Virus record (IMG/VR): IMGVR_UViG_3300029805_000004
Strand: one strand, 5' to 3'
DNA: 48,759 bases
Origin: a virus
Shown here: in pieces, positions 16,521 to 48,759 of the stretch
Layout of the letters: the number at the start of each line of letters is the position of its first letter
How positions within the stretch are numbered: the stretch's first letter is position 1
Program-made: the position numbers and the translations under genes
Notes under the pieces: model-generated
Databases searched by the model: none
What the model saw: the letters and a program-made list of their open reading frames with translations, nothing else
What the model was told of the DNA's origin: nothing

Positions 16521-16522
16521 CT

Positions 16523-17077
16523 ATGTGCACCGTAGTAGCAGCAATAACAGTAGCGATGTCCCTGTACCAAGGGGTGCAGGAGAATAATCGGGCTAAAGAC
16601 CAAGCTGACTATACACAGCACGTTGCAGCCGTTAATAGTCGCAACCGTGAGAACGAAGCGACCAAGGTGCGTAACGTCGGTGTTGAAGAAGAGAATAAGC
16701 AACGTCGTATGACGGCTGAATTGCTGGGCAGACAACGTGCTCAACTCGGTGCCAACGGTGTGCAGCTTGATTCAGGTAGTGCCTTGAACCTGCAACAAGA
16801 TACGGTGTCATTGGGTGAAGAAGATGCACTGCGTATCCGGGGTAACTATGCAGACCAAGCAGATGCTTTAGATCAAGAGGCGTCTAACATCACGTATGAA
16901 GGTGACTTCCAATCATCCCAACTGAAAGCGTCAGGTAAGAGCGCATTGATTGGTGGTGTCCTGAACGCAGGTGCCGCTGCCTATCCTGTCGCAAGTAAGT
17001 GGTACACGGCGAAGAGTTCAGCGAACAGTAGTTTTGCTGCCAACAATCCTTCATATACGAAAGTAATGGGGGTATAA
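16523..17077 (+). CDS. internal virion protein (gp14 position), N-terminal TM helix
   Basis: MCTVVAAITVAMSLY hydrophobic start, followed by helical/charged sequence. Gene order supports the call. Confidence 0.55.
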   Translation: MCTVVAAITVAMSLYQGVQENNRAKDQADYTQHVAAVNSRNRENEATKVRNVGVEEENKQRRMTAELLGRQRAQLGANGVQLDSGSALNLQQDTVSLGEEDALRIRGNYADQADALDQEASNITYEGDFQSSQLKASGKSALIGGVLNAGAAAYPVASKWYTAKSSANSSFAANNPSYTKVMGV

Positions 17078-17079
17078 CC

Positions 17080-20651: not shown

Positions 20652-21000
20652 TCTAACGCAAGCTGAACTTCAATCACTGCTGGCAAGCGGTGCCACTGTT
20701 GAGCGCAACAATGTTCAAATATCTGTAGCCGGTATGGTGCAAATGTTGCGTCACATGGGGTCCATGGTTGAGACTAATAAGGCGATAGCCAGTAAAACGA
20801 ATGATGCCATGGTGGAGGCAGTGAACAAGCTGACTCACGCGGTGAAGGAGAAGTCATTCAAACCGCAAGACTTGAAACCGTTAATTGATTCACTGCTCAA
20901 TAATAATAAACCCGGCAAACCCATTGCTTATGATTTCAACATTGAACGTAACAGTCGTGGGGTTATGACCAAAGTTTCTGCTACACCTAAAGAGGAATAA
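20644..21000 (+). CDS. hypothetical virion-module protein (118 aa)
   Basis: ORF overlaps the preceding stop by 8 nt. Confidence 0.55.
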   Translation: MADLTQAELQSLLASGATVERNNVQISVAGMVQMLRHMGSMVETNKAIASKTNDAMVEAVNKLTHAVKEKSFKPQDLKPLIDSLLNNNKPGKPIAYDFNIERNSRGVMTKVSATPKEE

Positions 21001-21002
21001 TC

Positions 21003-21419
21003 ATGGCTACATTTAATAAGTTTAATCAATTTGTCGAAGATAAAAATCACGGCAAACATGACTTCAGTAACGATACGATTATGGTGGCGTTGACTAATAC
21101 GCTACCTGTCGCAGGCAATTCCATCTTGGCTAACATCACTCAGGTTAGTTACACCAATCTGTCATCGCGCGTGCTGTCATTAGACTCAAGCGGTCAGGCT
21201 GGCGGGGTGTATAAAGTATCCTTCGACGACTTAACCTTGTCTGCTTCAGGTGGTAGTGTAGGACCATTCCGTTACGCGGTGATTTACAACGACTCACAGG
21301 CCACACCAGCCAAGCCGTTAATCGGTTGGTATGATCGTACCGCGTCTGTAACATTAGGTGATGGTGAATCCATACTGCTTGACTTAGACCAAGTCAACGG
21401 TCTGTTCGACGATCAATAA
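21003..21419 (+). CDS. hypothetical virion-module protein (138 aa)
   Basis: GAGGAataatcATG start. No family named. Confidence 0.55.
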   Translation: MATFNKFNQFVEDKNHGKHDFSNDTIMVALTNTLPVAGNSILANITQVSYTNLSSRVLSLDSSGQAGGVYKVSFDDLTLSASGGSVGPFRYAVIYNDSQATPAKPLIGWYDRTASVTLGDGESILLDLDQVNGLFDDQ

Positions 21420-21431
21420 ATCGTTTGAACG

Positions 21432-23165
21432 ATGACCATATCACGGGTCGGCACTTCATCACAGAACACTAACAATGTCACCAGCATGTCTTTATCTGTT
21501 CCTGCTGGGACGGTTGATGATGATGTCATTCTGTTTTTTGGATCATGTGATGGCAATAACGGGTACAACTTACCGTCAGGCTTCACGACGATCCATAATG
21601 TCAATTCGCCGGGGACCCACAAAAACTTACTGGCCTATCGGGTCGCTTCGTCTGAACCCGGCAGCTACACTATCTCAGCATCCACGGGTGAACGTGGTAT
21701 AGGTATATTCGTCACCTACCGGGGTGTCGATACATCATCCCCAATCAATATATCCACCAGCAATACAGGCGGGTCAAACACCACAGGCGTATTGTCTGCC
21801 ATAACACCACTGATTGATGATTGTATGGTGGCAGTATTTGCCGGGTTGGAAAGTGGTAACAATGGAAGCCCTATTGCAACATCGTGGCCCAGCACAATTA
21901 CTGAACGTCTTGATAATGTCAACGGTCCTGCGGGTGGTGGTAGCGCATCTTCAGCCGGGGCCTTTGGTGATGTACTCCAAACCACTAAAGCAACGGTATC
22001 AGGCAACATTGGACTGACAGGTGGTAATTCTAATTGGGGTGTGATGTGCGTAGCCTTGGCACCGATAGTGGCGTCTGGTCCTGATTACACGTTGGAACTG
22101 GATAAGGGTGCGTTCACTACCAGTGGATATGCTGCTTCATTCTTACTACAACATGCCTTACAGCTTGCCAAAGGTAGTTTTGTCACCACAGGTCATAGTG
22201 CAGAATTTCTTCGTCAGTACGCCTTGTCGCTTGATAAGGGTGGATTTATCACCACGGGCCACGATGCTGACCTACTTTCTCAATATGTCTTGCAGATTGC
22301 CAAGGGTGGATTCACCACCACGGGCCACGATGCAGACTTACTTCTTCAGTACAGCATGGAACTTGCCAAAGGTAGCTTTGACACCACGGGCCATGATGCA
22401 ATCTTCAGCTTTCAATATCGTATGGCCCTTGCCAAAGGTAGTTTCGCGACTACCGGGTATGCTGCTGACTTTAGAAAACAATACAATTTACAACTCGCGA
22501 CAGGTAACTTTGCAACGTCAGGTCATGATGCAGAACTGCTTACTCAATACAGCTTACAGCTTGATGCTGGCAGTTTCACTACAACTGGATATGGTACTGA
22601 TTTGCTTACAAATTACAATTTACAGCTTGCTACAGGAAACTTCACTGAGGCGGGTTACGAAATGGGGTTCAAGCTGCAATACAGTTTAGAACTAGATACA
22701 GGACATTTTAATGAGGCGGGGTTTGGGATCTCGTTTATATTGCAAGAGTCAGTGCTTCAGGAAGCGTTACGCAAGCTGCATGAATATTGGCGGTTCATGG
22801 GTAATGATGTGGGCCATCCTGCTACACGTGGTCCGCAATATCACACGGGTGGTGCAGGCATTACGCTGGACGTTGTTGGTCAAGATGATGTCACGGTAAC
22901 GAGGGCTGAAGAGTCGTTGATTGATAAACCCGGTGGTGATGCTGAGACTTTAATGCTGATGATGATTAACGATATATGGCGTCGCGTTGGATTGGACCAT
23001 GAGAATCCATTAACGATATCAGCGGTACTTGAAATGGCAGGTGATGTGGCGATTGATTTGAGTGAGAACGCGGGCGTGGTAACATTGCAACGACAAAATA
23101 CATTTGTGGTGGACGAACTAGGCAATACCTTAGTTGATGAATTTGGCAATTTTGTGGTGGGATAA
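21432..23165 (+). CDS. tail fibre/spike-like protein with ten 22-aa tandem repeats
   Basis: 577 aa. N-terminal beta-rich domain, then 10 copies of YxLxLxKGxFxTTGHDAxLLxQ, then a C-terminal domain. Confidence 0.6.
   Translation: MTISRVGTSSQNTNNVTSMSLSVPAGTVDDDVILFFGSCDGNNGYNLPSGFTTIHNVNSPGTHKNLLAYRVASSEPGSYTISASTGERGIGIFVTYRGVDTSSPINISTSNTGGSNTTGVLSAITPLIDDCMVAVFAGLESGNNGSPIATSWPSTITERLDNVNGPAGGGSASSAGAFGDVLQTTKATVSGNIGLTGGNSNWGVMCVALAPIVASGPDYTLELDKGAFTTSGYAASFLLQHALQLAKGSFVTTGHSAEFLRQYALSLDKGGFITTGHDADLLSQYVLQIAKGGFTTTGHDADLLLQYSMELAKGSFDTTGHDAIFSFQYRMALAKGSFATTGYAADFRKQYNLQLATGNFATSGHDAELLTQYSLQLDAGSFTTTGYGTDLLTNYNLQLATGNFTEAGYEMGFKLQYSLELDTGHFNEAGFGISFILQESVLQEALRKLHEYWRFMGNDVGHPATRGPQYHTGGAGITLDVVGQDDVTVTRAEESLIDKPGGDAETLMLMMINDIWRRVGLDHENPLTISAVLEMAGDVAIDLSENAGVVTLQRQNTFVVDELGNTLVDEFGNFVVG
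22086..22745 (+). repeat. 10 x 66-bp in-frame tandem repeats (22-aa units) inside the fibre-like gene
   Basis: accacgggccacgatgc recurs at 66-bp spacing. Protein units run from YTLELDKGAFTTSGYAASFLLQ to YSLELDTGHFNEAGFGISFILQ. Confidence 0.9.
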
Positions 23166-23762
23166 ATGGAAATTAAAAAGCAGATATTAGATTTTACCGA
23201 CAAGCCTGTTCCTGATGATGATGATGCAATTCTGATTCAGGAACCCGGTGGTCTAACACTGCGCACAGCATTAGCTGCACTTCATAAAAGCAAAATAGGC
23301 TTCTTTCAGTACGGTGATTTAGCAACCGCGACTGTACCGTTTGCCGTACCGGGCGATAGCGTGTACCGCGCTTTGCCTAACGATGGTGAAGGTAACAGCA
23401 CGCTAGACCAAGCACCGACAGGTATGACGCTGCTATGGAATGTGGACACTGACCAGTTTGATTTTTCTGAATTAGCCATCGGTGACATGGTGGATATAGC
23501 CGTCAACCTTGAGATCACATCATCATCTAACAATCAGCAAGTGGCCTTAAAGATGGTGCTTGGCATTGGTGGTACAGAAACAGAATTGCCGTTTGATTAC
23601 ATTAACCACAAATCAGCGGAAACATTCTTGATTTTACGGTACAAAGGCTTTTTCATTAAGGATGCAAATATCCGTGATAACCCAGCCGAGCTACGCATTG
23701 CCAGTGATGGTACAGCAGACGTTAAAATACTAGGTTGGTACTGCAAGATAACAAGGCGATAA
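23166..23762 (+). CDS. hypothetical tail-associated protein (198 aa)
   Basis: TAAATG junction with the fibre-like gene. Confidence 0.55.
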   Translation: MEIKKQILDFTDKPVPDDDDAILIQEPGGLTLRTALAALHKSKIGFFQYGDLATATVPFAVPGDSVYRALPNDGEGNSTLDQAPTGMTLLWNVDTDQFDFSELAIGDMVDIAVNLEITSSSNNQQVALKMVLGIGGTETELPFDYINHKSAETFLILRYKGFFIKDANIRDNPAELRIASDGTADVKILGWYCKITRR

Positions 23763-23763
23763 G

Positions 23764-23970
23764 GTGATATCACCACGGGATATAGCGTCAGGCGGGTATC
23801 TTAATTCTCCTGTCAGTGTGGCGGCAAATGGTTACATAGCAGTAAGTGTGGATAGTGGCGGTGGTGGTGCGTATCCTGTGTTTGGTGCAGGTAGATTGCT
23901 GAAGCAGATCCAACAGGACGATGAAGAAATAATGGTAATACTAATGGCATTTATGGGGATGATTCGATGA
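23764..23970 (+). CDS. possible small protein (68 aa, GTG start)
   Basis: The only ORF filling this gap. ATGA-coupled to the giant gene. Weak RBS. Confidence 0.4.
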   Translation: MISPRDIASGGYLNSPVSVAANGYIAVSVDSGGGGAYPVFGAGRLLKQIQQDDEEIMVILMAFMGMIR

Positions 23971-26900
23971 GCTTACAGGACTGTCTGAGAAAAGCAGGGA
24001 AAGCGTTCAATGCTTCCGATGCCACGGTCATCAATGAAAATGTCGAACAGCTTGTCAGTAGCGGTGTAGAACGGGCCACGGCTGAGACTCAAGCGGTTGA
24101 GCAGTTTCTATCACAGCAGACCGATGAGCTTAATGACATCGCCACACAAGCTGAAGAACTCGGTGCTACCGTAGCACGTGAGGACTTGACGCAACCTGAC
24201 TATTTGGCAGACTTCACCGCGACGTCCGCTACTGATTTCCATGGCAGACTATCTGAAGCGATGTCAGCAAGCACCAACGCATTGTCGGTGAAGATATACG
24301 ACGTCAGTGAATATGAGAATATGCAACTGTTCTTAACCGATGATGGTAAGGCCGGGTTTGCATTAGAGTACGATGGTGGTTTAATATCCGTGTTTAAGCA
24401 CCCGGATTCGTCCATTGATGCAGCATTAGATGTCATCGTGCCAGCAGCCATTCAAGCTGGTGCTACGAAGCTGGAAGCGTTTGACGGTTTTTTAACCGCA
24501 CGATATAAAGAATTTGGATTTGTCGAAGTATTACGGGATGATTGGAACGACAATTATGCACCGGCTGGCTGGGATAAATCTGTATTAGGTACACCCGCTG
24601 TAGTGGCGATGGAATTGAAAGGAGTAGCGCAATATGAATACAATGAAGAAACCATTCCGTTCTCGGTTCAACACCCGGTTGGAGTACGACGAGGCGATGA
24701 GTCGTTACAACCAAGTGATGCAACACCTGACCAAAGGCGCACCACGGGGCGTGAGTCAGATGGAAGTCTCAACGGACTCCCACGGGAAGTAGGCAATTTC
24801 AATGCAGCCGCCAGCAGTAAGATTGCAGCGGTTGCTGAAAATTATGTAACTCAACTCGGACTGGAATACAGTCCACCCACCAATTACGCAACTGTCGATG
24901 TGGAACGTGCGCGAAGAATAGCTGAAGCGTATGAAGCTATGAAGCACGATCCAGAAAACCCTGAAGTTAAAGAAGCCTATGCCGCACTGACTGAAGAAGT
25001 CATTGCACAATACCAAGCTGCACTTGATGCCGGGTTGAAGGTTGAGTTTATCAACTTTGAACGTGATGGTGATCCGTATGCAGCTTCACCGCGCATGGTG
25101 ACGGATGACATCAACAACAACAATCACATGTGGGTGTTCAGCACACGTGACGGTTTTGGTTCAAGCGTCGAGATAGATGTATCAAACAATCCCTTATTAG
25201 CTGAGACAGACTTTGTCATATCCGGGCAGAAAGCACTGGTCAATGACTTATTCCGGGTGGTCCATGATTACTTTGGTCACGCTAAAGAAGGTGTCGGCTT
25301 CCGGGCCATCGGTGAAGAAAATGCGTGGCGTATTCATTCCGCTATGTTTTCACCATTAGCGCGACAAGCATTGACGACTGAAACACGCGGTCAGAACTCA
25401 TGGGTCAATTATGGTCCACATGGCGAGGCCAACCAGACAGCGACCAGCGATACCGTATTTGCAGATCAGAAAACAGGACTGCTACCACAATGGGTCGTCG
25501 ATGAAGGTCGTATTGACCAGCCTATATTCAACCAAGATATCAATCCCACAGCGGTCCGCAATGCGCTTGGCCTGCACAGTGCCGTCGAGCAAGCGGTGAT
25601 GGATACCGACTTACAGCAATGGTCCAAAAAAGCTGGCAACAATAATAAACAAGTCAAAGCATTAGACATAAAGATTGCTGAACTTCAGACCACTTACAAA
25701 GCGGAACAAGCTGAATTTGAAGCCGCTATGGATAGGTTAGAAGCTAATCCCGGAAACCAAGAGGCGATTGATAACTTAGAAGATAAGCTGTCAGACACCA
25801 CCGTGTCTAACGAGATATCAAAGTTGAAGTTTGAGCGTTCCAGAATTGCCAACAATCCCTTGGCACCGGGTGTTGAAATCTGGTCGAAGATATCTAAGAC
25901 TGCTGGCGTCAAGAAAGAAGAATTAACGTGGTTGGGATTAGAAGAATTTTTGAAGGTAGATCCTAAAGGAAAGTTCAGCCGGGAAACAGTTCTTAACTTC
26001 GTGCGTGCTAACGGCGTGGTGGTGGAAGAAACCATCGGTGATCAAGAGACATCATCGCGCAATGAACTTGAGTGGGATAGCGGCACCGTGTGGGACGAGG
26101 AAGAAGCCTACATGCACAACGTCGAAGATATGATGTATGAGTTCGACGCTGGTGATGATGACACGTCTTATATCAACATCGCTACCTTCATGGACAAGTG
26201 GATGCACGACAACATCGACACGGTGTTGGCAAATTACAAAACATCGCTGCCTGAAGGTGAGTTTGCTGAACTGACTGAACTGGACACGCCGGGTGATCAA
26301 ATTGTCTGGTTGGCTAACCACTACCCTGTCAATGAAGATATGCGCAGTGAGGCCCGTGAGGACTTTGAAGAAGCCGCCACAGCAGCAGCGCGTGAAGCCT
26401 ACTTGGATGATCCGACCTACATACATAAAGCCACCAACGTAGAAGATTTATACATCTTCGGTAGTGACGACTTGGGTTATGACATTCGCCATGGTGGGTG
26501 GGATAACGCTAAATACATGATTGACAACCAACTCCATATTGATTCTCTCAATGAGACTCAAATCCACGCATTTCATTATGCTATTGAAGAAGGATTGTTG
26601 GAACAAGTTGAGGACGTTAATGTTGCCAAGTGGGGCGATTACGTTATGGATGGTAGCTGGGATAACTACCGGGAAATCAAACTCATCCTACCTGATCTTG
26701 GCGGTCAAGACTTTGACTATGATATGCACTTTGAGGACTCCAACATCGTCGCGTTCCTACGGGTGGATGATAGAGATTTATCGACTGGTACTACAAGAGA
26801 ACAAAAGCGGACTGTTGAGAAAGAAGATTTTAATGAGTTTGATGACCCTAGTCGTCCACGTTACGGGGTTAAAGTTACGGTTGATGGAAAGGTCTACCGT

Positions 26901-29900
26901 AGTGATTACGATACTGCTGAAGAAAGGGATGCCAACTTCATACCGCTAAGTGATGCGGGTGGCAATCAAGTAGACAACGTAGCCAAAACATTCTTCATTG
27001 ATGAATTTCAATCTGACTGGCACCAACAAGGTCGTCAGGAAGGGTATAAATTCACAGAATCAGACCGCGTAGAGGCGCGTGCAAAAGCTGAAGTATTGAA
27101 GAAAGAACAACAAGACAACCTTGACAGCCTTGAAGAAAAATATGGTGAAGATTGGAAATGGATGTCGTCCCATGAAGAACGCAACGTCAATGTAGAACTA
27201 GGCGATAAAATAAGAAAGTTGCACGAACAAGCAGACGCGGTCCCTAATGCGCCATTCAAGGGTGATGCGTGGGTCAACTTAGGTTTGAAACGGGCCATCA
27301 TTGAAGCCGTTGATAATGGGTACGAGTCAATCGCGTGGCCTAACTCACAAGTGCTGGTGGACCGATGGAGTGAAATGTACCGGGAACTGTACGTTAATCA
27401 GTACGACAGGAAGATGGTCAAAGGTATCAAAAAATTGACTGGTCAAACACCAGTGCAGTTGGACCTTGAAGGTAATCCTTATCCTACGACCAGCGATGTG
27501 TTGAACGCTTTTGACCTAGTACCGTCAAGTGAATCAGGTAGATTTAATTTAAAACTAAAAAGCGGTCACAACACCATTGAAGCAATTCCTGTTAATGACG
27601 AAGGGATTGCCAGTACAGGTCGGTCCCTTGGTGAAGTAAGTAAGCTGACGTTTAGCAATGAAGGTCATGCAGTTGAATTTTTAAAAGATGTTGTCAAAAC
27701 AGAATCAACGCAAGGCTACTTCATCATCCCAATCACAGATGAGCTACGGGCAGATATCAAGAATGATGGCCTGACCTTATTCCAAAAACAAAGCGGTGAA
27801 GCACGTGGGTATTATGATCCGACGAACGTATTGATCCGATTGAACGAAGCAGCCAATCCTTCAACCTTCATTCATGAGTTTGCTCACTTCATGTATGACA
27901 TGGAACAAAAACTTAAAGGACCAAACCTTAATGCAATCAACAACTGGTATCACGGCAATGCTGAAGATATCGCTGCTGAAGCGTCTGAGCATTATGGACA
28001 CCTCATATCAGGGTTTGAAGTTGACCAATACTTAGACAACGGCACGACAGGTGATGTGGAAATAGATACAGCCATCTTGGTAGCCACGCATGAGCAGTTT
28101 GCCCGTGGGTTTGAGTCCTATGTGATGGAAGGTAAGGCACCAAGTATGGAATTGCGCAATGTATTCCGGGTGTTAGCGCGTATGCTGACAGCAGTTTACA
28201 AAGCCATCACAGGCGGTTTAAGCACTCCAAACGTCACAGACGATATGCGACAGGTGTTTGACCGATTGATTGCTACAGAGGAACAGATAGCCGCCAGCGA
28301 AGCACGTGACCGCGCAGCACCTTTGTTTACTGATGCTGCCATGGCGGGGATGACTGAAGAACAGTTCCAGAAATATCAAGAGCAGGCACGCAAAGCTACC
28401 GATAAATCCAACGAGACTTTACGCGACAAGGTGATGAAAGAATTAACCCGCGTGCAGCAGAAGTGGTGGGGTGATGAGCGTGATGACATCATTGATGAGC
28501 AAGAAGAAATCCTACGAACTGAACCTGTCTATGTGGCACGTGCTCGGTTGCGTAGTGGTGACGATCTGAAATTGGATTATGTCTCTACGATTGAAATCAT
28601 GGGTGTGAAAAATTTGATGGGTATCGTCCCGATGCGTGGCCTAACTGCAAAAGGTGGTCTAGGCACGCACCCGGATGAAGCTGCGAAAGTCTACGGGTTT
28701 GAAACCGGGGACCAGTTAATTGAAGCACTGATGACTGAACCCAAGTTGCAAGATAAAGCAGAGGCTAATGCTGATGCTGAAATGATTGAGCGTCACGGTG
28801 ACATCATGAACGATGGCACGCTGGAAAAACTAGCCGATGACATGGTCAGAAATGAGCAGCGCGGTACATTGCTGCTGACTGAAATTAAGGCATTGTCTAA
28901 GGGCCAGAACGTACCACTGATTGACAAGCAAACTATCAAGGCATTAGCGGCTGAGAACATCGGCAAGCTGGCATTGAAAGATATCCGTCCTGACCGTTAC
29001 CGCAAAGCTGAGATCCACAGTGCGCAGGAAGCAGCCATTGCATTATCTAAAGGGGACCAAGTAGCAGCATTAAGAGCTAAGACCCAGCAGGTGATGAACT
29101 TCTACTTATGGCGTGAAGCACGTGATGCACAACTCACGGGTGGCAAGGTGGCTACATACATGGCCCGGTTCAAGAAGAAGTCACTGCGTGAACGTATCGG
29201 TAAAGCTGGCAACAACTATCTGGAAAACATTGACCGTATTTTAGAACGGTTTGAGTTTAGGAAATCAGTGTCGTTCAAAAAACATGCTGAAGCACGTGAC
29301 TCATTGCAGGCATGGGTGGACCAGCAGGGCAGCGAGAGTGACATGATTGCCTTGAGCACTGAAGTATTAGATGAAACGTATGCGCGTCACTGGCGTGAGA
29401 TACCGATTGATGAGTTGGTGGGTATTCAGGAGTCAATCCAAAGCATTGAGAACAGTGCCAAGGCGTTGAACAACATCATCATCAATGAAGAGAAGTTGAC
29501 CTATGAGCAGACCATCACCCGGATGCTGAATCAGATGGGCCAACTTAAAGATAAAGTTTTCCCACAATATAAAGATTCTGTTGACAATGGTGGTGTGCGT
29601 CGCTGGACTGAAAACTTCCTGACTGAACAGGTCAAAATCCCATGGATGATGCGCTGGTTAGACAACGGTGAAGAAGTGGGGATCATGCACCAAACCATTA
29701 TGCAGCCGATGAACAACGCTTATGATGCTGAAGTGCGTATGTGGGACCGGGTTGGTAAGGTGGTGATGCAGGCCATCAATGGTCGTAGCAAGGATGATGT
29801 CAAACGTCACCAGCAAGAAATCAGCATCCCTGAAATTGCCAATACTGAAACCAAGCTGGAAGGTAAGCTGCTCGGTCATCAAATTATTGCGGTTGCATTG

Positions 29901-31583
29901 AACACAGGTAACGAAGGTAACTTGCGGAAGATGCTACTCGGTGAAGGATGGGCCACTACGGATGAAGAAGTCAGCATTGAGAATCCTAAACTCCAAGCCG
30001 TGTTGCAGCACATGAGCACGTCAGATTGGGACTTGGTTGAACTGATATGGGAACAGATTGGATCACTTAAAGCAGACTTAGCAGCCATCCATAAACGGGC
30101 CACTGGTATCACCATGGATGAAGTGAAACCCGTGTCGTTCGTACAGGATGGTCGCACCATTAAGGGTGGGTATTACCCGGTTAAGTACGATGCCAACCGT
30201 AGCGAGAAAGCACGTCTTAACGAAGAGAAAGCAGATGAACAGGCCGTGTCCATGTTGACGGCGGGTGGCTTTGTGCAGCCTGTCGCACGTACAGGTGCAC
30301 GCATCAATCGTACTGAGTTCGTAGGTCCTATCAAGTTCAGCTTGGATGTGGTGCCTAACCATATTCAGGAAGTTATCCACTTCATTACTCACTATGATGC
30401 GATTAAACAGGTGAATAAATTAACGGGTGATCCACGCATTGCCGCTGCCATCAAAACAAAATTGGGACCAGCACAATACGCATTGCTTAAACCTTGGCTG
30501 AACGATGTGGCTAAAGATGGCAAGGAAGCACCTATCAAGTCAGGTCTTGAATCACTGGCCCGTAGGTTAAGGTTTGGTACTACATACGGTGTAATGGGCT
30601 TCAAGGCGTCCACAGGCTTAATTCAAATCGCCGGTATCTTTAACACCGCTGCTGAAGTGGGCGTGGTTAGAACACTACGCGCAGTACGCACCGTGTTGGG
30701 TAGCGAGAAGTCCATACGTGAGACTTGGGAATTTGCCAAGGCCAACAGCAAGGTGCTTGAACATCGTCAGCAAACTATGGATAGGGAAATCAAGAACGCA
30801 TTGATAAGCCTGCAATCCAAACGCGGTCCGCTGGCAGTGGTACAGGAAGCTGCCATGATGCACATCGCTTTGGTCCAAACGTACACCGTTGACTTACCAT
30901 CATGGTATGCCGCCTATGCGAAGGGCATGGATAAATTTGAAGGTGATGAACAGCGTGCTTTCCAGTATGCAGATTGGGTAGTTGAGAACGTGCAGGGTAG
31001 TGGTCTGACAAAAGATATGTCATCCATCATGCGCAGCAAATCTGAACTGTACCGATTAGGCACCATGTTCATGACGTTCTTCAGTTCATTGTATAACCAT
31101 AATGCTGACGTGAAGCGTGCGGTGCAGGCGGGTCAACTTAGCATCCCGGCAGCAGTCGGCAAGCTGATGTTGTTGTGGACATTACCCGCGCTATTTGAAA
31201 CAGTGATGCGCGAAGGGTGGGGTGATGAGGACGATGAAGAAAGTTTGTTAGAGCGCACATTAGTCGGCACAGCCATGATGCCAATCACCACGGTGCCGTT
31301 CTTTAATCAGGTAGCGAACGGGGTGATATCAGGCTACGGTTACTCAGCATCACCTGTATTTCCGCTGGTCGAAGGTGGCGTTGAAGCCACACGTGCGCTG
31401 GCTGAAGGTGGGGAATTGACCAAGTACAAAATCAAACAAGCAAGTAAGGCGGTGGGCATTGCTTTTGCCATACCGGGTGTAAATCAGGCATGGATCACCG
31501 GGGAACATTTGTACGACTATGCAGTAGAAGGTGAAGATTTATCAATGCGTTACCTGCTTGTCACAACTAATAAAGACAAGTAG
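23967..31583 (+). CDS. giant 2538-aa polyvalent-type virion protein with zincin HExxH module and hydrophobic C-terminal region
   Basis: Uninterrupted 7.6-kb ORF. HEFAH at aa 1303-1307 (nt 27873-27887), then HEQFARGFESY at aa 1375. VHDYFGH motif at aa 432-438. FIDEFQSDWHQQGRQEGY segment. LARRLRFG at about aa 2197-2204, followed by hydrophobic segments. Confidence 0.8.
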   Translation: MSLQDCLRKAGKAFNASDATVINENVEQLVSSGVERATAETQAVEQFLSQQTDELNDIATQAEELGATVAREDLTQPDYLADFTATSATDFHGRLSEAMSASTNALSVKIYDVSEYENMQLFLTDDGKAGFALEYDGGLISVFKHPDSSIDAALDVIVPAAIQAGATKLEAFDGFLTARYKEFGFVEVLRDDWNDNYAPAGWDKSVLGTPAVVAMELKGVAQYEYNEETIPFSVQHPVGVRRGDESLQPSDATPDQRRTTGRESDGSLNGLPREVGNFNAAASSKIAAVAENYVTQLGLEYSPPTNYATVDVERARRIAEAYEAMKHDPENPEVKEAYAALTEEVIAQYQAALDAGLKVEFINFERDGDPYAASPRMVTDDINNNNHMWVFSTRDGFGSSVEIDVSNNPLLAETDFVISGQKALVNDLFRVVHDYFGHAKEGVGFRAIGEENAWRIHSAMFSPLARQALTTETRGQNSWVNYGPHGEANQTATSDTVFADQKTGLLPQWVVDEGRIDQPIFNQDINPTAVRNALGLHSAVEQAVMDTDLQQWSKKAGNNNKQVKALDIKIAELQTTYKAEQAEFEAAMDRLEANPGNQEAIDNLEDKLSDTTVSNEISKLKFERSRIANNPLAPGVEIWSKISKTAGVKKEELTWLGLEEFLKVDPKGKFSRETVLNFVRANGVVVEETIGDQETSSRNELEWDSGTVWDEEEAYMHNVEDMMYEFDAGDDDTSYINIATFMDKWMHDNIDTVLANYKTSLPEGEFAELTELDTPGDQIVWLANHYPVNEDMRSEAREDFEEAATAAAREAYLDDPTYIHKATNVEDLYIFGSDDLGYDIRHGGWDNAKYMIDNQLHIDSLNETQIHAFHYAIEEGLLEQVEDVNVAKWGDYVMDGSWDNYREIKLILPDLGGQDFDYDMHFEDSNIVAFLRVDDRDLSTGTTREQKRTVEKEDFNEFDDPSRPRYGVKVTVDGKVYRSDYDTAEERDANFIPLSDAGGNQVDNVAKTFFIDEFQSDWHQQGRQEGYKFTESDRVEARAKAEVLKKEQQDNLDSLEEKYGEDWKWMSSHEERNVNVELGDKIRKLHEQADAVPNAPFKGDAWVNLGLKRAIIEAVDNGYESIAWPNSQVLVDRWSEMYRELYVNQYDRKMVKGIKKLTGQTPVQLDLEGNPYPTTSDVLNAFDLVPSSESGRFNLKLKSGHNTIEAIPVNDEGIASTGRSLGEVSKLTFSNEGHAVEFLKDVVKTESTQGYFIIPITDELRADIKNDGLTLFQKQSGEARGYYDPTNVLIRLNEAANPSTFIHEFAHFMYDMEQKLKGPNLNAINNWYHGNAEDIAAEASEHYGHLISGFEVDQYLDNGTTGDVEIDTAILVATHEQFARGFESYVMEGKAPSMELRNVFRVLARMLTAVYKAITGGLSTPNVTDDMRQVFDRLIATEEQIAASEARDRAAPLFTDAAMAGMTEEQFQKYQEQARKATDKSNETLRDKVMKELTRVQQKWWGDERDDIIDEQEEILRTEPVYVARARLRSGDDLKLDYVSTIEIMGVKNLMGIVPMRGLTAKGGLGTHPDEAAKVYGFETGDQLIEALMTEPKLQDKAEANADAEMIERHGDIMNDGTLEKLADDMVRNEQRGTLLLTEIKALSKGQNVPLIDKQTIKALAAENIGKLALKDIRPDRYRKAEIHSAQEAAIALSKGDQVAALRAKTQQVMNFYLWREARDAQLTGGKVATYMARFKKKSLRERIGKAGNNYLENIDRILERFEFRKSVSFKKHAEARDSLQAWVDQQGSESDMIALSTEVLDETYARHWREIPIDELVGIQESIQSIENSAKALNNIIINEEKLTYEQTITRMLNQMGQLKDKVFPQYKDSVDNGGVRRWTENFLTEQVKIPWMMRWLDNGEEVGIMHQTIMQPMNNAYDAEVRMWDRVGKVVMQAINGRSKDDVKRHQQEISIPEIANTETKLEGKLLGHQIIAVALNTGNEGNLRKMLLGEGWATTDEEVSIENPKLQAVLQHMSTSDWDLVELIWEQIGSLKADLAAIHKRATGITMDEVKPVSFVQDGRTIKGGYYPVKYDANRSEKARLNEEKADEQAVSMLTAGGFVQPVARTGARINRTEFVGPIKFSLDVVPNHIQEVIHFITHYDAIKQVNKLTGDPRIAAAIKTKLGPAQYALLKPWLNDVAKDGKEAPIKSGLESLARRLRFGTTYGVMGFKASTGLIQIAGIFNTAAEVGVVRTLRAVRTVLGSEKSIRETWEFAKANSKVLEHRQQTMDREIKNALISLQSKRGPLAVVQEAAMMHIALVQTYTVDLPSWYAAYAKGMDKFEGDEQRAFQYADWVVENVQGSGLTKDMSSIMRSKSELYRLGTMFMTFFSSLYNHNADVKRAVQAGQLSIPAAVGKLMLLWTLPALFETVMREGWGDEDDEESLLERTLVGTAMMPITTVPFFNQVANGVISGYGYSASPVFPLVEGGVEATRALAEGGELTKYKIKQASKAVGIAFAIPGVNQAWITGEHLYDYAVEGEDLSMRYLLVTTNKDK

Positions 31584-31612: not shown

Positions 31613-34600
31613 ATGACTGTCAACACGACTAATATTGTTTCAGGCCCGTATACCGGCAACGGTGTGACCACTCAATTCAGTTATGGCTTCAGGGTTGACG
31701 ATAAAACGCAACTCGTTGTCTATGAAACCGATGACTTAGGTGTTGAAAGCGTGTTGGTCGTTGACGTTGACTACACGGTTAATAACGTGGGCGATGATGC
31801 TGGTGGCACGATTGACCGTATCGCAGGCGCGTTGCCTACCGACTACACGTGGTATATCCGTTCTAATTATCTGCATCTTCAGCTAACCGCGTTCGCCTCA
31901 CAGGGTGGATTCTTTCCAGACGTTCATGAAGCTGCGATGGATTTGCTGACGTTCTTATCCCAACAACAAGAGGACCGTATTGCACGCGCAATGCGATTCA
32001 ACGATTCATATTCAGGCGGTGCAGATCCAGAACTACCTGTACCTGAAGCCGACAAAGTATTGGTCTGGTCCTCGGATGCCTTAAACATCATCAACGGACC
32101 GAGTGAAGGTACGTTCATGGGTTGGGCTGACGCAGCAATCGCAGCAGCAGCAGCGGCGGTGATCAGTGCCGACGCAGCAGCCGCCAGCGCAGTAGCAGCA
32201 GACTTGAGTAAGATTGCCGCCGCGTTGAGTGAGACTAACGCAGGTGACGCAGCCAATGCAGCAATAGCAGCAGCAGCAGCAGCGGCGATAGATAAAGCAG
32301 CAGCAGCCGTCAGCGCAGCAGCAGCATTAGTCAGTCAAGGTGCTGCGTCAGACAGTGAGGCAGCAGCAGCAGCCAGTGCAGCAGCAGCCGCGATAGACCA
32401 GCTTGCAGCAGCAGCCAGTGCAGCAGCAGCATTAGTCAGTGAAGGTCTAGCAGAATATTGGGCCGGGGAAGCACAGACCGCTGCTGGTGCAAATGAAAAG
32501 ATTGCCGCACGTAACGCAGTACAAAACCAAGACGCAGTAAGCCAAGGTTTAGCACAACGGTCTGGTATGAGTTCAACTATCTACACAGGTAACGGTACAA
32601 GCCAAAGTATTATTACTGGCGTTGATATGTCCAGCGGCGATTTTGGTGGCTTTAACTGGATTAAAAATAGGGATGCTGCAATATCTCACGCCTTGACTGA
32701 TTCAGTCAGGGGCGACTTTAGGTTAGAGAGTGACACAACCGCCGCAGAGTCAGCCACTACAGCGGTAGCGCTAACGTCAACAGGGTTTGACTTGGTCACT
32801 GCAAGCAACAGATACAACCAAAATAGTGTTGATTATGTAGCTTGGTCATTCCAAACCAATAAGAAAGCGTCACGTAATATAGCGATATACCCTGAACAAT
32901 TTGATAATGCGGTATGGGCAAAATCGGCGGGCATAGTGGTTACACCTAACGCACAAATCGCACCTAATGGCTTTATGACAGCAGATGAATTGGCACATGA
33001 CGGAGTGAACAATCGCGCCGTAGTGCAATCACCCACAACCTTAAAGGCTAACACCACCTATACTTTTTCAATCTATTTAAAAATAATCTCCGGTAGTTTT
33101 ACCGAGAATAGTAAATGTCAATTAGCAATTTATGGCAGTGGCCTTGTAGCTACATCATCGGTGATTATTGGTGACGCACTTAACGGCGATTCTGAATGGC
33201 AGAGATTTGAAGCAACAGCGACAACAAACGGCGCACCGTCAGTAGCTAATTTCAGCATAAGGTGTGATGAGTTAGTCACCCTTGCTGAGTGGGGCGCACA
33301 GATTGAAGAAGGTAGCGCGGCAACCGATTATCAAAACGCAGAAACCAATCACGGCAAGCCTTACGAGTGTCACTACAATACTGAAATGGGCTTTAGTATT
33401 GTCGGCTATGAAGGTGATGAAGTCGCAGGCCATGAGATACCGCATCATCTAGGTGGCGAACCTGAATTAACAATCTATAAAAATAGAGAGAGCGTTTATT
33501 CTTGGATAGTAAAAGGGGCAATGTTTCAGGACGATGAGTTCTTATTCCTGAACGCCACTAATGCGCTGGCTACAGGTTATGTCAGTTCGCAAGATGATAC
33601 GACTTTAACCGTGGACGATACGGAGGAGTTAAATGAAGCAGGCATAAATATCATCGCCTACAACTTCCGTTCTATCGCGGGCGTATCAAAAATAGGCAAG
33701 TACATCGGCACAGCGGCAACGGGTAATTATGTCGATTGCGGCTTTATTCCGCGCTTTGTGATGTTGAAAACGCTTGATTCTGCTGGTGGATGGGCGATGT
33801 ATGACACTGCTAGGGGTATAGACCAAGTAGTAAATGCAGAGAGCAGTGACGCTGAAACTACTAACGTCAAGATTGAATTGACCGAGAATGGTTTTGTGCT
33901 TATTGGTACGTCATACAATGCACTTGACCAACAATATTTATTCATAACTTTTGCTGAAACTGACAGCGATGCCAACAAGTCATGGACGGATTACGACTAC
34001 GCCGTTGATAAAGACGTTTTAGTTATTGAGCAAGATACCTTGGTGAGCTTTGCTAATGGCTTCTCAGAAACAGGCCAAGTCGATACGCAATTCAATGTCG
34101 GCAGTGGCGTGACCTACAGCGAGAAAGGCGATGAGCTGGTAACTAATGGCACGTTTGATACTGATACCGATTGGAATAAAGGCGCAGGCTGGTCTATTGG
34201 TTCTGGTGTTGCAACCTCGGATGGTGCTAATGGAAACCAAGCGCTCAATCAAATTGTCAACCTTGTTGAAGGCGATACTTACCAAGTCTCTTTTGAGGTT
34301 ACTGCCTATACTGCTGGTTTATTACAACTAGAGTTGATTGCTACGACAACCGTAGCCGCAATAAATGTCAATGCTACTGGCGTGTATACCGTTACTTATG
34401 TTGCCGAAGCTGACACCTCTATGATAGTTGTTTTTAGAAGCAATGCTAGCTCTCCTTTTGCTGGCGGTGTTGATAACGTATCGGTCAAAGTAGTAGTCAG
34501 CACACCTAAGAAACTCTACCTGTTCATGGACAAGACCGGCTTGCTTGGTTCAACTGAGTTCAGACCTTTGGTTGGCCTGTCACGTGACGAGGCCGATTTT

Positions 34601-36007
34601 TGGGGTGTTGAGTCACCGCTTGACCCTAGCCTTAGAACAGCGGCGCATCACTTTGATTATGAAAGTAGTACAGGTGTGGCGAGTGCCAGCATTGAAGAAT
34701 CCAATGCCGTAGCTTGGGAGGCGGTAGCTGAACATGCGAATGAAATAGTGGCAGACCGCCGCTGGTTGGCATTAACTAATACGCTATGTTGGTGGCAGTA
34801 CAAAGGTACTGAGAAACGCATCTTAAAATCATGGCGTATACGTGCGGCTAATATAGGTCGCTTACCACAGCGGTTTACCATTGAAGGTAGTAATGACGGG
34901 CTGAATTGGACAGCGATTGATTCAACTTATACTAATAGCGACTTCAATATCGGGGGCAGTAATCTTTGGGGCGACTTAGAAGATACGTCAGCCAATACAA
35001 CGGCTTACCTTTACCATCGGATAAACATTACCGCTAATGGCAGTGACCCTTCATTAACAGGGTTTGCCAGCATGGAGTTCAACACCGAATTGCCGTCCGA
35101 CTATTACCTAATCCCACAGGGTGAAATGTTTGCCTATCGTGGTGATGAAGTGGTGGTTAATGGCACGTTTGATGTTAATACAGACGGTTGGAGTCCTAAA
35201 GATGGTGACGCTGAATTAACCGTAGTAAATCAAACCCTGCGCATCACTAACGGTGCGGCAAATGGGGCTTGGGCTAATCAGGCATTAACAGGTTTAATCG
35301 TTGGTGAGACTTACGAGGGTAGCGTACAAGGTGTCGGCGGCGATGCAGGCGCATCACGATTTACTTGTGGTAGTTCTGTAGGTGGCAGTGACTATTCAGG
35401 GTCGGGTGCTGATAATCTATTTGGCCTTGATGGAAAAACTTACACGTTTAGATTTGTAGCAGTAGCCACAACAGCTTGGTTTAGAGTGTCCAACGCTACG
35501 GCACTTCTTGGTGCTTACTATGACTACGACAACATCACCGTCAAACAGGTCGGCGTACAAATTGAACGCACCTACCTTGCTGAGTTCACAACCGACAGCG
35601 ATGGCGATGTAAGTTCATTCAAAAACCTTACGCCAGCCAAGCAGTACGAAACTGAAATGGAAGTGCTGAAAACCTTAACTGTGCGGGGTGAGATTCACAA
35701 TCCGCAAGTGGCGACAGCATGGGGTGATGTTGATGGTACGGTAGCACCACCGCTGGTAAGTGTTGAGCATAATATAGCGGCAATTGTCGGCTTAGACGCA
35801 GGTAGTTATTATGTTGAGTTTAACGAACCTATGGACACTAAAAGCTATGTGGTGGTGGCGACAATAGTCAGCCTTAATACCAACCATAACAGGATTGTTA
35901 AAACAGGTAATAAGACTGTCAGGGGGTTTGAATTGTTGGCGCAAACCACAGGAAGCGTACCGGCTGATGCCGTCCTATCATTTGCAGTATTTGGAGGGAA
36001 AGACTAA
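31613..36007 (+). CDS. 1464-aa receptor-binding tail fibre (Ala-rich coiled region, repeated YTGNG/GF domains, CBM-like jelly rolls, discoidin-like domain)
   Basis: N-terminus SGPYTGNGVTTQFSYGFRV is typical of podoviral fibres. Ala-rich region at nt ~32125-32490. Two GDE(L/V)V.NGTFD...DN(V/I)(S/T)VK modules. WRIRAANIGRLPQRFTIEGSNDGLNWTAID is discoidin-like. Confidence 0.75.
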   Translation: MTVNTTNIVSGPYTGNGVTTQFSYGFRVDDKTQLVVYETDDLGVESVLVVDVDYTVNNVGDDAGGTIDRIAGALPTDYTWYIRSNYLHLQLTAFASQGGFFPDVHEAAMDLLTFLSQQQEDRIARAMRFNDSYSGGADPELPVPEADKVLVWSSDALNIINGPSEGTFMGWADAAIAAAAAAVISADAAAASAVAADLSKIAAALSETNAGDAANAAIAAAAAAAIDKAAAAVSAAAALVSQGAASDSEAAAAASAAAAAIDQLAAAASAAAALVSEGLAEYWAGEAQTAAGANEKIAARNAVQNQDAVSQGLAQRSGMSSTIYTGNGTSQSIITGVDMSSGDFGGFNWIKNRDAAISHALTDSVRGDFRLESDTTAAESATTAVALTSTGFDLVTASNRYNQNSVDYVAWSFQTNKKASRNIAIYPEQFDNAVWAKSAGIVVTPNAQIAPNGFMTADELAHDGVNNRAVVQSPTTLKANTTYTFSIYLKIISGSFTENSKCQLAIYGSGLVATSSVIIGDALNGDSEWQRFEATATTNGAPSVANFSIRCDELVTLAEWGAQIEEGSAATDYQNAETNHGKPYECHYNTEMGFSIVGYEGDEVAGHEIPHHLGGEPELTIYKNRESVYSWIVKGAMFQDDEFLFLNATNALATGYVSSQDDTTLTVDDTEELNEAGINIIAYNFRSIAGVSKIGKYIGTAATGNYVDCGFIPRFVMLKTLDSAGGWAMYDTARGIDQVVNAESSDAETTNVKIELTENGFVLIGTSYNALDQQYLFITFAETDSDANKSWTDYDYAVDKDVLVIEQDTLVSFANGFSETGQVDTQFNVGSGVTYSEKGDELVTNGTFDTDTDWNKGAGWSIGSGVATSDGANGNQALNQIVNLVEGDTYQVSFEVTAYTAGLLQLELIATTTVAAINVNATGVYTVTYVAEADTSMIVVFRSNASSPFAGGVDNVSVKVVVSTPKKLYLFMDKTGLLGSTEFRPLVGLSRDEADFWGVESPLDPSLRTAAHHFDYESSTGVASASIEESNAVAWEAVAEHANEIVADRRWLALTNTLCWWQYKGTEKRILKSWRIRAANIGRLPQRFTIEGSNDGLNWTAIDSTYTNSDFNIGGSNLWGDLEDTSANTTAYLYHRINITANGSDPSLTGFASMEFNTELPSDYYLIPQGEMFAYRGDEVVVNGTFDVNTDGWSPKDGDAELTVVNQTLRITNGAANGAWANQALTGLIVGETYEGSVQGVGGDAGASRFTCGSSVGGSDYSGSGADNLFGLDGKTYTFRFVAVATTAWFRVSNATALLGAYYDYDNITVKQVGVQIERTYLAEFTTDSDGDVSSFKNLTPAKQYETEMEVLKTLTVRGEIHNPQVATAWGDVDGTVAPPLVSVEHNIAAIVGLDAGSYYVEFNEPMDTKSYVVVATIVSLNTNHNRIVKTGNKTVRGFELLAQTTGSVPADAVLSFAVFGGKD

Positions 36008-48502: not shown

Positions 48503-48681
48503 TACTCACCACCTTTGAACACGTTTTCAAGGTGCTCAATTAAATACTTAGCATAGCCAACGACTAGCTCAACATCGTCAAACATGAATGTTTCATCACC
48601 ACGCTCGACGCACTTTTTATACTCAACTTTCAACCGGGCCAATACAGCCGGGGTGAACTCAAGTGAAGATTGATTTGCCAT
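48502..48681 (-). CDS. hypothetical early protein (59 aa) spanning the repeat boundary
   Basis: Below the track cutoff. Sequence MANQSSLEFTPAVLARLKVEYKKCVERGDETFMFDDVELVVGYAKYLIEHLENVFKGGE. The same ATG appears at 39-41, which shows the two ends are contiguous. Confidence 0.5.
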   Translation of the reverse strand: MANQSSLEFTPAVLARLKVEYKKCVERGDETFMFDDVELVVGYAKYLIEHLENVFKGGE

Positions 48682-48759
48682 TATTTATACCTCAGTAATT
48701 TTGACGTTTTGTGATACCAGACCGTAGCTGTCTTTCAGCTTCATGCCAGTCTCACGACT
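48641..48759. repeat. Terminal direct repeat copy 2 (identical to 1-119)
   Basis: Exact 119-bp identity with the window start. Confidence 0.95.

Follow-up and report, generated by a model that had tools for sequence, protein, structure and literature searches.

Bbp10 of phage BPP-1 was identified as the IVP-D homologue of that phage by Hardies et al. (2016; PMC4819975, Table 2), who described IVP-D proteins as extensively alpha-helical, linked them to T7 gp16 through stepwise HMM-HMM matching, and proposed IVPs as vehicles for "passenger domains for intracellular function" (PMC4819975). The relatives of Bbp10 (PHROG 9880), among them Vibrio phage 1.021.A gp18, PS25B.1 p0017, Pseudomonas phage AF gp16, and Octadecabacter virus OANV1 gp16, are single polypeptides with a median length of 2080 aa in which an LPD22 module is followed by cargo and then by a conserved C-terminal module, here called D; they are often annotated as "crystallin beta/gamma motif-containing protein" or "lysin". 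A case in which packaging and injection were shown by experiment, cited in Iyer 2017 and Hardies 2016 (PMC4819975), is the virion RNA polymerase of N4, gp50, in which an intracellular enzyme precedes an HExxH region and a long helical C-terminal domain. There is also a precedent for one gene versus two in giants of the IVP-D type: between Pseudomonas phage F116 and H66 gp60, the homologue of one phage is split over two big genes in a close relative (Hardies 2016, PMC4819975). Finally, the polyvalent proteins of phages and conjugative elements (Iyer, Burroughs, Anand, de Souza, and Aravind 2017) are late gene products that combine many unrelated modules with a zincin hub. The gene described below has features of all of these and is probably the counterpart of T7 gp16 with an enzyme-like passenger train fused at its front; the strategy is the known one of polyvalent proteins, here present as a split gene with a common, still unnamed domain.

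The window is the whole of IMG/VR record IMGVR_UViG_3300029805_000004, 48,759 nucleotides; all coordinates refer to it, and every feature given with coordinates lies on the plus strand. Its termini carry an exact 119-bp direct repeat, and the genome is therefore complete; it is that of a marine podovirus of the epsilon15/BPP-1 lineage. The giant ORF, an ATG-to-stop reading frame of 2538 aa with the stop included (23967-31583), takes up 15.6% of the 48.8-kb genome and lies among late/virion genes. The original prediction placed it correctly, and all of the motifs that it quoted are present: LFLTDDGKAGF... (aa 121-143), GATKLEAF...GFVEV (aa 165-188), VHDYFGH (aa 432-438), FIDEFQSDWHQQGRQEGY (aa 1010-1027), PFKGDAW...IAWP (aa 1096-1125), HEFAH (aa 1303-1307), HEQFARGFESY (aa 1375-1385), and LARRLRFG (aa 2197-2204). 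At 90% identity, the protein clusters with no other in a collection of 15 billion. Judged by homology, it is the product of a real gene and not of a chance reading frame, because its C-terminal half matches PHROG 9880 and its N-terminal half has 945 homologues at E <= 0.001 among 8000 candidates scored. The two halves are distinct: aa 1-1264 comprise a leader and the shuffling modules A, B, and C, and aa 1265-2531 are the C-terminal module of the Bbp10 family. The leader, A, B, C, the putative zincin, and the helical carrier are each delimited by an independent set of homologues.

Module D, the Bbp10-type carrier at the IVP-D position (aa 1265-2538; 27759-31583), matched PHROG 9880 with E = 2.7e-240 over aa 1265-2519. 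Its homology to the family runs end to end over about 1270 residues. Across aa 1265-2531, identity is 48% with the proteins of Vibrio phages PS25B.1 and 1.021.A (blastp E = 0) and 27% with Bbp10 itself (blastp E = 1e-104), and the family also has the same invariant HExxH...E, RLRxG motif, and place in the genome. The family comprises 291 clusters, whose members usually have LPD22, PBECR1, or ART-PolyVal between the conserved N-module and D; GGDEF, GNAT, Zeta, or RadC also occur there. In a confident AlphaFold model of aa 1265-2464 (pLDDT 81.8), D was nearly all alpha-helical by DSSP, and every one of its 81 fold matches in BFVD was a C-terminal piece of a giant phage protein, with ART-PolyVal, MuF-C, LPD, and "structural protein" entries among them. 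The giant resembles T7 gp16 in being extensively alpha-helical and in lying downstream of gp13-, gp14-, and gp15-like genes and ahead of the fibre, but it has no N-terminal lytic transglycosylase, with no SLT or lysozyme match in Pfam, NCBIfam, or PDB, and T7 gp16 in turn lacks an HExxH module. With single-sequence templates and the tools used, neither T7 gp16 nor epsilon15 gp17 showed detectable similarity in sequence or profile; hhalign and hmmsearch of D against these two and the C-terminus of N4 gp50 gave E = 0.36-4.9 (for T7 gp16 and epsilon15 gp17, 0.43 and 0.36 by hhalign and 4.9 by hmmsearch), and the kinship of D with these proteins is taken from the literature and from synteny.

The LARRLRFG motif (30555-30578) stands at the start of a less polar C-terminal region and corresponds to a family consensus, RLRxGxTxGxMGFKAxTG, in which R and G are nearly invariant. 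Its suggested kinship with PLxRFG found no backing: the C-terminal piece matched nothing in Pfam (E <= 10) or NCBIfam (E <= 0.1), libraries from which the relevant model may be missing, and tblastn at E <= 1 returned no Klebsiella or Lastavirus record, the PLxRFG giants being those of Lastavirus podophages. The following ~330 residues had been called largely hydrophobic, which is an overstatement, although they are indeed less polar than the rest (mean Kyte-Doolittle hydropathy -0.06 for aa 2205-2538 versus -0.55 for the remainder). Just two weak peaks resemble transmembrane segments (aa 2216-2234 and 2391-2414), and these are what would speak for membrane insertion of the giant.

At the N-terminal end of D lies the predicted core of a zincin-like metallopeptidase (aa ~1280-1400; 27804-28166), with HEFAH at 27873-27887 and HEQFARGFESY at 28089-28121. 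Residues H1303, E1304, H1307, E1376, and E1383 were invariant in 51 of 51 relatives. The AlphaFold model predicts the order strand-strand-helix(HExxH)...helix(HE...E), the HExxH lying in one helix (model residues 34-51) and both downstream glutamates in another (model residues 100-123), and E1376 and E1383 are candidates for the third zinc ligand of a gluzincin-type enzyme. The best profile matches, all sub-threshold, were zincins: DUF6782 (E = 0.006-0.009), Spartan SprT (E = 0.015), the HExxH region of N4 gp50 (E = 0.076), thimet oligopeptidase (E = 0.22), and lethal factor (E = 0.35). The alignment with N4 gp50, in which passenger, HExxH region, and helical C-terminal domain follow in the order seen in the giant, covers the strand-HExxH segment, and overall similarity to that protein, whose passenger is an RNA polymerase where that of the giant is not, was not significant. 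Pfam gave no significant match, and the MPTase-PolyVal model did not match. Foldseek likewise gave no significant fold match, but the query was the whole 1200-aa model of module D and the search was uninformative. The earlier claim of a zincin is probably right, given the invariant HExxH and downstream glutamates, the order of strands and helices, and the sub-threshold zincin profiles; the weak profile matches point towards zincins of the SprT type. Some relatives have insertions of 200-400 aa separating the HExxH helix from the Glu helix, an uncommon feature in a compact catalytic domain.

Gene order in the window is portal, capsid, tubular tail B-like, a T7 gp13-like gene (16056-16520; Pfam Phage_T7_Gp13), a T7 gp14-like gene (16523-17077; Pfam T7_gp14), a 543-aa ORF at the gp15 position (17080-18711; 33% identical to a Vibrio phage gene of equal length), a 646-aa ORF (18711-20651), the giant, and a tail fibre (31613-36007), which marks the downstream limit of the ejection-protein block. 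In Vibrio phages 1.021.A and PS25B.1, a single gene of 2057-2222 aa sits at the position of the giant. The 646-aa ORF carries LPD22 at aa 26-113 (Pfam E = 1.6e-17), aligns with positions 258-696 of PHROG 9880, and shares 42% identity with the single Vibrio-phage gene over aa 24-596 of the latter; on this alignment evidence, it is the detached N-terminal module of the ancestral gene of the giant, a part that had been overlooked. The gp14/15/16-position proteins had also been regarded as separate from the giant, but its C-terminal 1270 aa are themselves the gp16-position module. About 3.3 kb with five ORFs lies between the 646-aa ORF and the giant: a 118-aa ORF (20644-21000) conserved in four of four split-type loci; a variable block of 138-aa, 577-aa, and 198-aa ORFs (21003-23762) that differs among the split-type relatives; and a 68-aa ORF (23764-23970) with the conserved C-terminus ..DDEEIMVILMAFMGMIR, whose stop overlaps the ATG of the giant (ATGA). 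The same layout, with LPD22 on a separate ORF rather than in the giant and two conserved small accessory ORFs in each contig, was found in the metagenomic contigs L005, L009, and L010, and the split is therefore not an assembly artefact. The F116/H66 gp60 precedent belongs to another homology group, and its description mentions no conserved leader, no intervening variable block, and no small accessory ORFs. The giant was originally placed between two fibre genes. The downstream gene is indeed a fibre (T7-gp17-like N-terminus, CBM4_9, DUF7483); the presumed upstream one is the 577-aa ORF (21432-23165), which has ten 22-residue repeats and for which homology to fibres was not demonstrated. Moreover, the immediate upstream neighbour of the giant is the 68-aa ORF, previously unlisted, and before it comes the 198-aa ORF.

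Where the Bbp10 family has its LPD22 module and cargo, the giant has a new leader and modules A, B, and C. The leader (aa 1-76, MSLQDCLRKAGK...; 23967-24194) is acidic and helical, is 67% identical to aa 1-76 of homologue P0123, and is also N-terminal in homologues P0124, P0142, P0171, P0032, P0001/2, and P0122; when compared with the start of the 646-aa protein, it scored no higher than shuffled controls. Module A (aa ~100-225; 24264-24641; PHROG 2563) is a small passenger with nine homologues. It had been thought possibly GNAT-like, which the searches did not bear out: no GNAT family was among the Pfam matches of nine members at E <= 1, the best PDB matches were unrelated with one GNAT-like integron protein only at E = 1.6, and there was no similarity to GNAT-like gp13 proteins. 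Between modules B and C, an acidic, partly coiled linker (aa ~531-884; 25557-26618) has hardly any homologues in the coverage map, and Asp/Glu density reaches 22-27 per 100 aa across aa 701-1000. Module C (aa ~885-1264, core 1005-1135; 26619-27758), with 41 homologues, is a divergent copy of a shuffling passenger module; the family consensus is LHVEElQSDWgQeGR / PYNTQhWTDLALK / GGxGMKgYYD, and with the last of these conserved motifs lost, the copy in the giant may be inactive. The C-D junction of homologue P0171 is the same as in the giant, and elsewhere the order and position of A, B, and C differ among giants.

Module B (aa ~250-530; 24714-25556; PHROG 3170), with the motifs VHDYFGH, GEENAW, and ETRGQNSW, was present in all of the 120 N-half matches listed, at 52-69% identity (about 60%), with 62 invariant columns in the alignment. 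At E <= 1e-3 it was found in 5,177 clusters (50% identity), the largest protein that contains it having 4,713 aa. From this conservation we consider it an enzyme-like passenger domain. Its AlphaFold model is confident (pLDDT 88, pTM 0.85), and no PDB entry matched the fold (best E = 0.55). None of A, B, and C is in Pfam, module A also gave no PDB signal in profile searches, and for module C the same Pfam result held for its homologues. That the protein is of polyvalent type was upheld: its passenger modules recur, shuffled, in hundreds of large proteins with ART-PolyVal, MuF, LPD22/38/39, InPase, DdrB-ParB, Zeta toxin, or M15 peptidase, and the D family itself carries LPD22, PBECR1, and ART-PolyVal. 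Neither the passengers nor the zincin of the giant match the Pfam models from Iyer 2017, although some LPDs never entered Pfam and module B was set apart from the domains of that study through these models.

The giant is probably the C-terminal gene of a split ejection protein of the Bbp10 type, the T7 gp16 (IVP-D) counterpart, loaded with passengers. What we infer of packaging, ejection, proteolysis, and the roles of the passengers is as follows. Synthesis of the protein would be late, and it would join the gp14-like, gp15-position, and 646-aa LPD22 proteins in the capsid core, to be ejected through the tail at infection. Helical module D, with its less polar C-terminal ~330 residues, may form part of a trans-envelope conduit, and the acidic N-terminal 1264 residues (leader, A, B, and C) may enter the cell as early effectors; the putative zincin, at the exact junction of passengers and carrier, would most likely cut the polypeptide before packaging or after ejection, freeing the passengers. 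No virion proteomics of a close relative was found in the accessible literature. This lack of proteomic evidence, and that of a Pfam virion-structural domain in the giant, would suit a protein that is absent from the virion, a late cytoplasmic multi-enzyme for superinfection exclusion or anti-defence, for example, whose gene just happens to sit in the structural operon. Such a role is very improbable, however: the gene is flanked by internal-virion genes and the tail fibre, the ATGA overlap couples its start to the ORF before it, the last 1270 aa form the conserved module of the protein that all relatives have in the IVP-D slot, and no further IVP-D candidate was found in the genome. That the giant is an ordinary structural repeat protein of the tail or fibre, as its size and the adjoining fibre gene could suggest, was effectively refuted: it has no tandem repeats and no fibre or tail matches in PHROG or Pfam, its C-terminal half is helical rather than beta-rich, and the conservation of module B is enzyme-like.

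Two further alternatives accept that the protein is delivered. In one, the passengers act in the periplasm or cell wall, B or C supplying a virion-associated muralytic or envelope-modifying activity that is otherwise seemingly missing from the phage: Pfam shows neither lysozyme nor SLT in the gp13-, gp14-, gp15-, and 646-aa-position proteins, BPP-1 Bbp11 and epsilon15 gp15 have SLT domains at that position, and B and C are often found in proteins with M15 peptidoglycan peptidases. We regard this as unlikely. Modules B and C also accompany ART-PolyVal, MuF, InPase, and Zeta, which are expected to be cytoplasmic; no similarity to a muralytic fold or profile was significant (MltE only at E = 7); and in the Vibrio relatives B and C are absent and so is an SLT, and therefore B and C fill no lineage-wide gap. 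The other alternative, to which we give some weight while thinking it the poorer account, is that the HExxH is a structural or metal-binding relic without protease activity and that the polypeptide is delivered uncleaved; ArdC and TraC1, plasmid polyvalent proteins with C-terminal MPTases, are transferred full length (Iyer et al. 2017), and both the absence of a significant zincin fold match and the large insertions in relatives fit this. Against it, the H, E, H, E, and E are absolutely invariant in relatives down to 23% identity, which argues for catalysis, and both Spartan and the metallopeptidase region of N4 gp50 can be aligned to the strand-HExxH arrangement.

If the giant is indeed a passenger-bearing podoviral ejection protein, it would deliver ready-made proteins directly, ahead of gene expression, and its passengers are therefore candidate anti-defence or host-takeover effectors. 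A bolder reading, which we offer tentatively and do not favour, is that module B represents an undescribed family of enzymes, probably dependent on metal, whose fold is unrepresented in the PDB, that it is among the commonest injected passengers, and that the split lineage is a dedicated effector-loading system; were this so, that lineage, with its leader and accessory ORFs of ~120 aa and ~65 aa, would load exchangeable effector trains onto an ejection-protein carrier. Module B, being abundant, conserved, and confidently modeled, with neither a Pfam entry nor a PDB fold match, is in any case a priority for biochemistry and structure. The locus also offers a natural experiment, in that the carrier is fused in the Vibrio phages and BPP-1 and split in the source genome and its three metagenomic relatives, the cargo differing from case to case, and the comparison helps to define the parts for packaging (leader and small ORFs), processing (junction zincin), and conduit formation. 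At 2538 aa, the giant is longer than all 122 D-family proteins retrieved, the largest of which has 2230 aa; OANV1 gp16, which also contains module B, is longer still at 2986 aa.

An exact 119-bp direct repeat at both termini (positions 1-119 and 48641-48759) identifies the window as a complete genome; the repeat may be either a true terminal repeat or the assembly overlap of a circular map. The giant gene runs from ATG to stop at 23967-31583 (+), encodes 2538 aa and takes up 15.6% of the 48,759 bp. The ORF in the original prediction is real and was correctly described, and all motifs quoted from it were located at the residues given. The protein, which is of metagenomic origin, forms a cluster of its own at 90% identity among 15 billion collected proteins. 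Megablast against 50,697 phage records returned no nucleotide-level relative of the ORF, and the whole protein found nothing meaningful in Pfam, NCBIfam, or PDB sequence searches.

The giant lies among podoviral structural genes in T7 order, a module of the epsilon15/BPP-1 lineage. This module comprises a portal (PF12236), an epsilon15-gp7-type capsid protein sharing 75% identity with its counterparts in Vibrio phages PS25B.1 and 1.021.A, a tubular-tail-B-like protein, Pfam matches to T7 gp13 (16056-16520) and gp14 (16523-17077), a 543-aa gene in the gp15 position, a 646-aa ORF (18711-20651, +) matching Pfam LPD22, five more ORFs, and the giant itself, 3' of which lies a fibre of 1464 aa whose N-terminus is T7-gp17-like. 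BPP-1 Bbp11 and epsilon15 gp15 carry a lysozyme/transglycosylase domain, whereas none was detected in the gp13-, gp14-, gp15-, and LPD22-position proteins of the window (16056-20651). The N-terminal 266 aa of the 543-aa protein match only PHROGs labelled "endolysin", without a Pfam muralytic domain.

The C-terminal half of the giant (module D, aa 1265-2538) matches PHROG 9880 with E = 2.7e-240, is 48% identical over 1270 aa to the single giant gene that the Vibrio phages have in this place, and is 27% identical both to Bordetella phage BPP-1 Bbp10 and to OANV1 gp16. A database search yielded 291 clusters of this D family, whose members are mostly 2000-2200 aa long and combine an N-terminal LPD22 with variable central ART-PolyVal, GGDEF, GNAT, Zeta, PBECR, and RadC domains; Bbp10 has the architecture LPD22 + PBECR1 + D. 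The family is already linked in the literature to IVP-D carriers (internal virion protein D) that bear passenger domains: Hardies et al. 2016 (PMC4819975) identified Bbp10 as the BPP-1 homologue of IVP-D (T7 gp16), and concluded of podoviral internal virion proteins that they "host ... passenger domains for intracellular function", taking N4 gp50 as the model case. By single-sequence hhalign and hmmsearch, the D-family profile gave no significant match to T7 gp16, epsilon15 gp17, or the N4 gp50 C-terminus, and epsilon15 gp16 gave a borderline match (domain E = 0.039) to the LPD22-module part of the profile; homology of D to T7 gp16, epsilon15 gp17, and N4 rests on synteny and the literature. 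No usable virion proteomics of the BPP-1, AF, or UFJF_PfDIW6 giants was found in the accessible literature.

The AlphaFold model of aa 1265-2464 (51 sequences; pLDDT 81.8, pTM 0.67) is confident and nearly all helical. Foldseek found only non-significant helical bundles and transporters as PDB neighbours of this 1200-aa model, which is too large to expose a zincin core of ~120 aa. In BFVD the model has 81 neighbours (E <= 1e-3), and those listed are all C-terminal pieces of giant phage proteins, named as LPD-, ART-PolyVal-, MuF-C-, nuclease-, or crystallin-motif-containing, or as "structural protein". The RLRxG motif is conserved in the D family. Its resemblance to PLxRFG is putative; neither a domain-model match nor similarity to the "PLxRFG" giants of Lastavirus was found. 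Calling the C-terminal region largely hydrophobic was an overstatement, as it is only relatively less polar. One Caudoviricetes genome, BK063671.1 (hit H114), encodes a region that matches the last 310 aa of D at 31.6% identity (E = 2e-27), and its listed host, Methanomicrobiales, is unexpected for a podoviral carrier module.

The Vibrio phages and BPP-1 have one gene after the gp15-position gene. In the window, the 646-aa ORF corresponds to aa 24-596 of the single Vibrio-phage gene (42% identity), and giant aa 1265-2531 to aa 766-2051 of the same gene. Between the two halves lie, in order, a 118-aa ORF, a variable block (ORFs of 138, 577, and 198 aa), and an ORF of 68 aa. A matching layout was found on three other metagenomic contigs, and the split is thus a lineage trait rather than an artefact: an LPD22 ORF comes first, then a conserved ORF of ~120 aa, variable ORFs, a second conserved ORF of ~65 aa (..EDEEI..MAFMGM), and an ORF consisting of leader, cargo, and D. 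The D-bearing proteins differ in cargo: P0123 on L005, whose D is 76% identical, carries ART-PolyVal, P0124 on L009 has only leader and D, and P0171 on L010, a contig labelled TARA, has leader, C, and D. The leader, MSLxDCxKKAGK..., marks D genes without LPD22. This recurrent split-gene organization, with its leader and accessory ORFs, is new; epsilon15 also has two genes at this position (gp16, 634 aa, and gp17, 918 aa), and a broken IVP-D gene has a published precedent in F116 versus H66 (Hardies et al. 2016, PMC4819975).

The 118-aa ORF (20644-21000, +) directly follows the LPD22 ORF with an 8-nt overlap and is kept in all four split-type contigs. The 68-aa ORF (23764-23970, +), previously unlisted, has a GTG start, and its stop overlaps the ATG of the giant (ATGA); its C-terminus, ..QQDDEEIMVILMAFMGMIR, is kept in ORFs of 64-67 aa at the matching place on the three other contigs and is absent from the fused-type phages examined. 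Because the ORFs following the 118-aa ORF differ among split-type contigs, the DNA separating the two halves forms a hypervariable block; composition and GC3 gave no sign of a recent foreign insertion of this block or of the N-terminal half of the giant. The detached LPD22 ORF of L010 (2965-6081) is 1038 aa long and has its own ART-PolyVal domain, so cargo can reside in either half of the split gene. The 577-aa protein upstream of the giant (21432-23165, +) had been taken for a fibre; it contains about 10 tandem 22-residue repeats (LxLxKGxFxTTGHxAxLLxQY, aa ~213-435), and TRF reports a 66-nt period at 22236-22400 within its gene, but it matched no fibre or tail family. Over its first 209 aa, this protein shares 47% identity with a hypothetical protein encoded by Maribacter phage Panino.

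At the junction of the two halves of the giant, the HExxH region of D is probably a zincin, as originally proposed. Residues H1303, E1304, H1307, E1376, A1379, E1383, Y1385, and P1392 are invariant in a 51-sequence alignment reaching down to 23% identity, and AlphaFold places two short strands before the HExxH helix and the HE...E motif on a later helix. The best PDB matches to the profile of the region are zincins, led by Spartan SprT (E = 0.015) and followed by thimet oligopeptidase, anthrax lethal factor, and a zinc metallohydrolase; weak Pfam matches are to the putative metallopeptidase families DUF6782, DUF4344, M78, and M3, as well as to LPD1. The strand-HExxH segment also aligned (E = 0.076) with the region of N4 gp50 that Iyer et al. 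2017 (PMC5512222) assigned to zincins. The assignment is rated probable rather than proven because none of the SprT, Pfam, and N4 matches is significant alone, and that the HExxH is non-catalytic is a minority reading, though one of some weight. An oddity is that in some D-family proteins (among them P0142, P0148, P0177, and P0206; alignment A3), insertions of 200-400 aa, aligned to aa 1308-1375, separate the HExxH and HEQFARGFE helices, so cargo can insert within the putative zincin; one of them contains an ART-PolyVal-like "VYHGT..F..F" signature.

Most likely, the giant is packaged alongside the rest of the internal virion proteins and leaves the virion when infection starts; module D would then help form a trans-envelope channel, the acidic passenger train would enter the cell, and the junction zincin would free it. 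The passenger half (23967-27758) has a net charge of -114 versus -25 for the carrier half, Asp plus Glu far exceeding Lys plus Arg, with 22-27 acidic residues per 100 across aa 701-1000. That the passengers act instead in the periplasm is unlikely, that the giant is a non-virion cytoplasmic enzyme is somewhat less likely still, and a fibre-like protein would be very surprising.

By BLAST against retrieved homologues, aa 1-1264 fall into five parts. The 76-aa leader is followed by modules A (aa ~100-225) and B (aa ~250-530), then by a linker that is acidic, partly coiled, and almost without homologues, and last by module C (aa ~885-1264). The copy of C here is divergent, and its family motif GGxGMKxYYD is lost. 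None of A, B, and C, homologues included, is in Pfam, and this cargo set is new. The three vary in position and order in other large proteins, alongside ART-PolyVal, MuF, LPD38/39, InPase, DdrB-ParB, Zeta toxin, and M15 peptidase domains. Such shuffling typifies polyvalent proteins (Iyer et al. 2017, PMC5512222), and the polyvalent reading of the giant was correct. Sequence tests gave no support to a GNAT-like module A, which showed no similarity to T7-gp13-type GNAT-like proteins.

Module B is newly recognized as an enzyme-like domain that is abundant and unnamed and has no known fold. Its homologues (alignment A1) have ~60% mean identity over 290 residues; 62 columns are invariant, with many His, Asp, Glu, Arg, Asn, and Gln among them. 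An exhaustive HMMER search gave 5,177 clusters at 50% identity, 3,299 of them with E <= 1e-30, and the module occurs at any position in proteins reaching 4,713 aa in length, as well as in solo proteins of 285-500 aa. The AlphaFold model is confident (pLDDT 88, pTM 0.85), but Foldseek found no PDB fold match (best E = 0.55, tryptophan hydroxylase, TM ~0.15), nor was there a PDB sequence-profile match. Two readings, VHDYFGH as the iron site (H-E-x-x-G-H) of aromatic amino-acid hydroxylases and an HD domain, were rejected on this TM and on the lack of Biopterin_H and HD Pfam signals in 26 members, four of which gave a weak YdjC match (E = 0.005). The core of the module (giant aa ~338-520) also stands alone as a small hypothetical protein (31% identity, E ~1e-12), namely gp104 of the cluster C Mycobacterium phage Bxz1 and its like in 198 other records of Mycobacterium phages.
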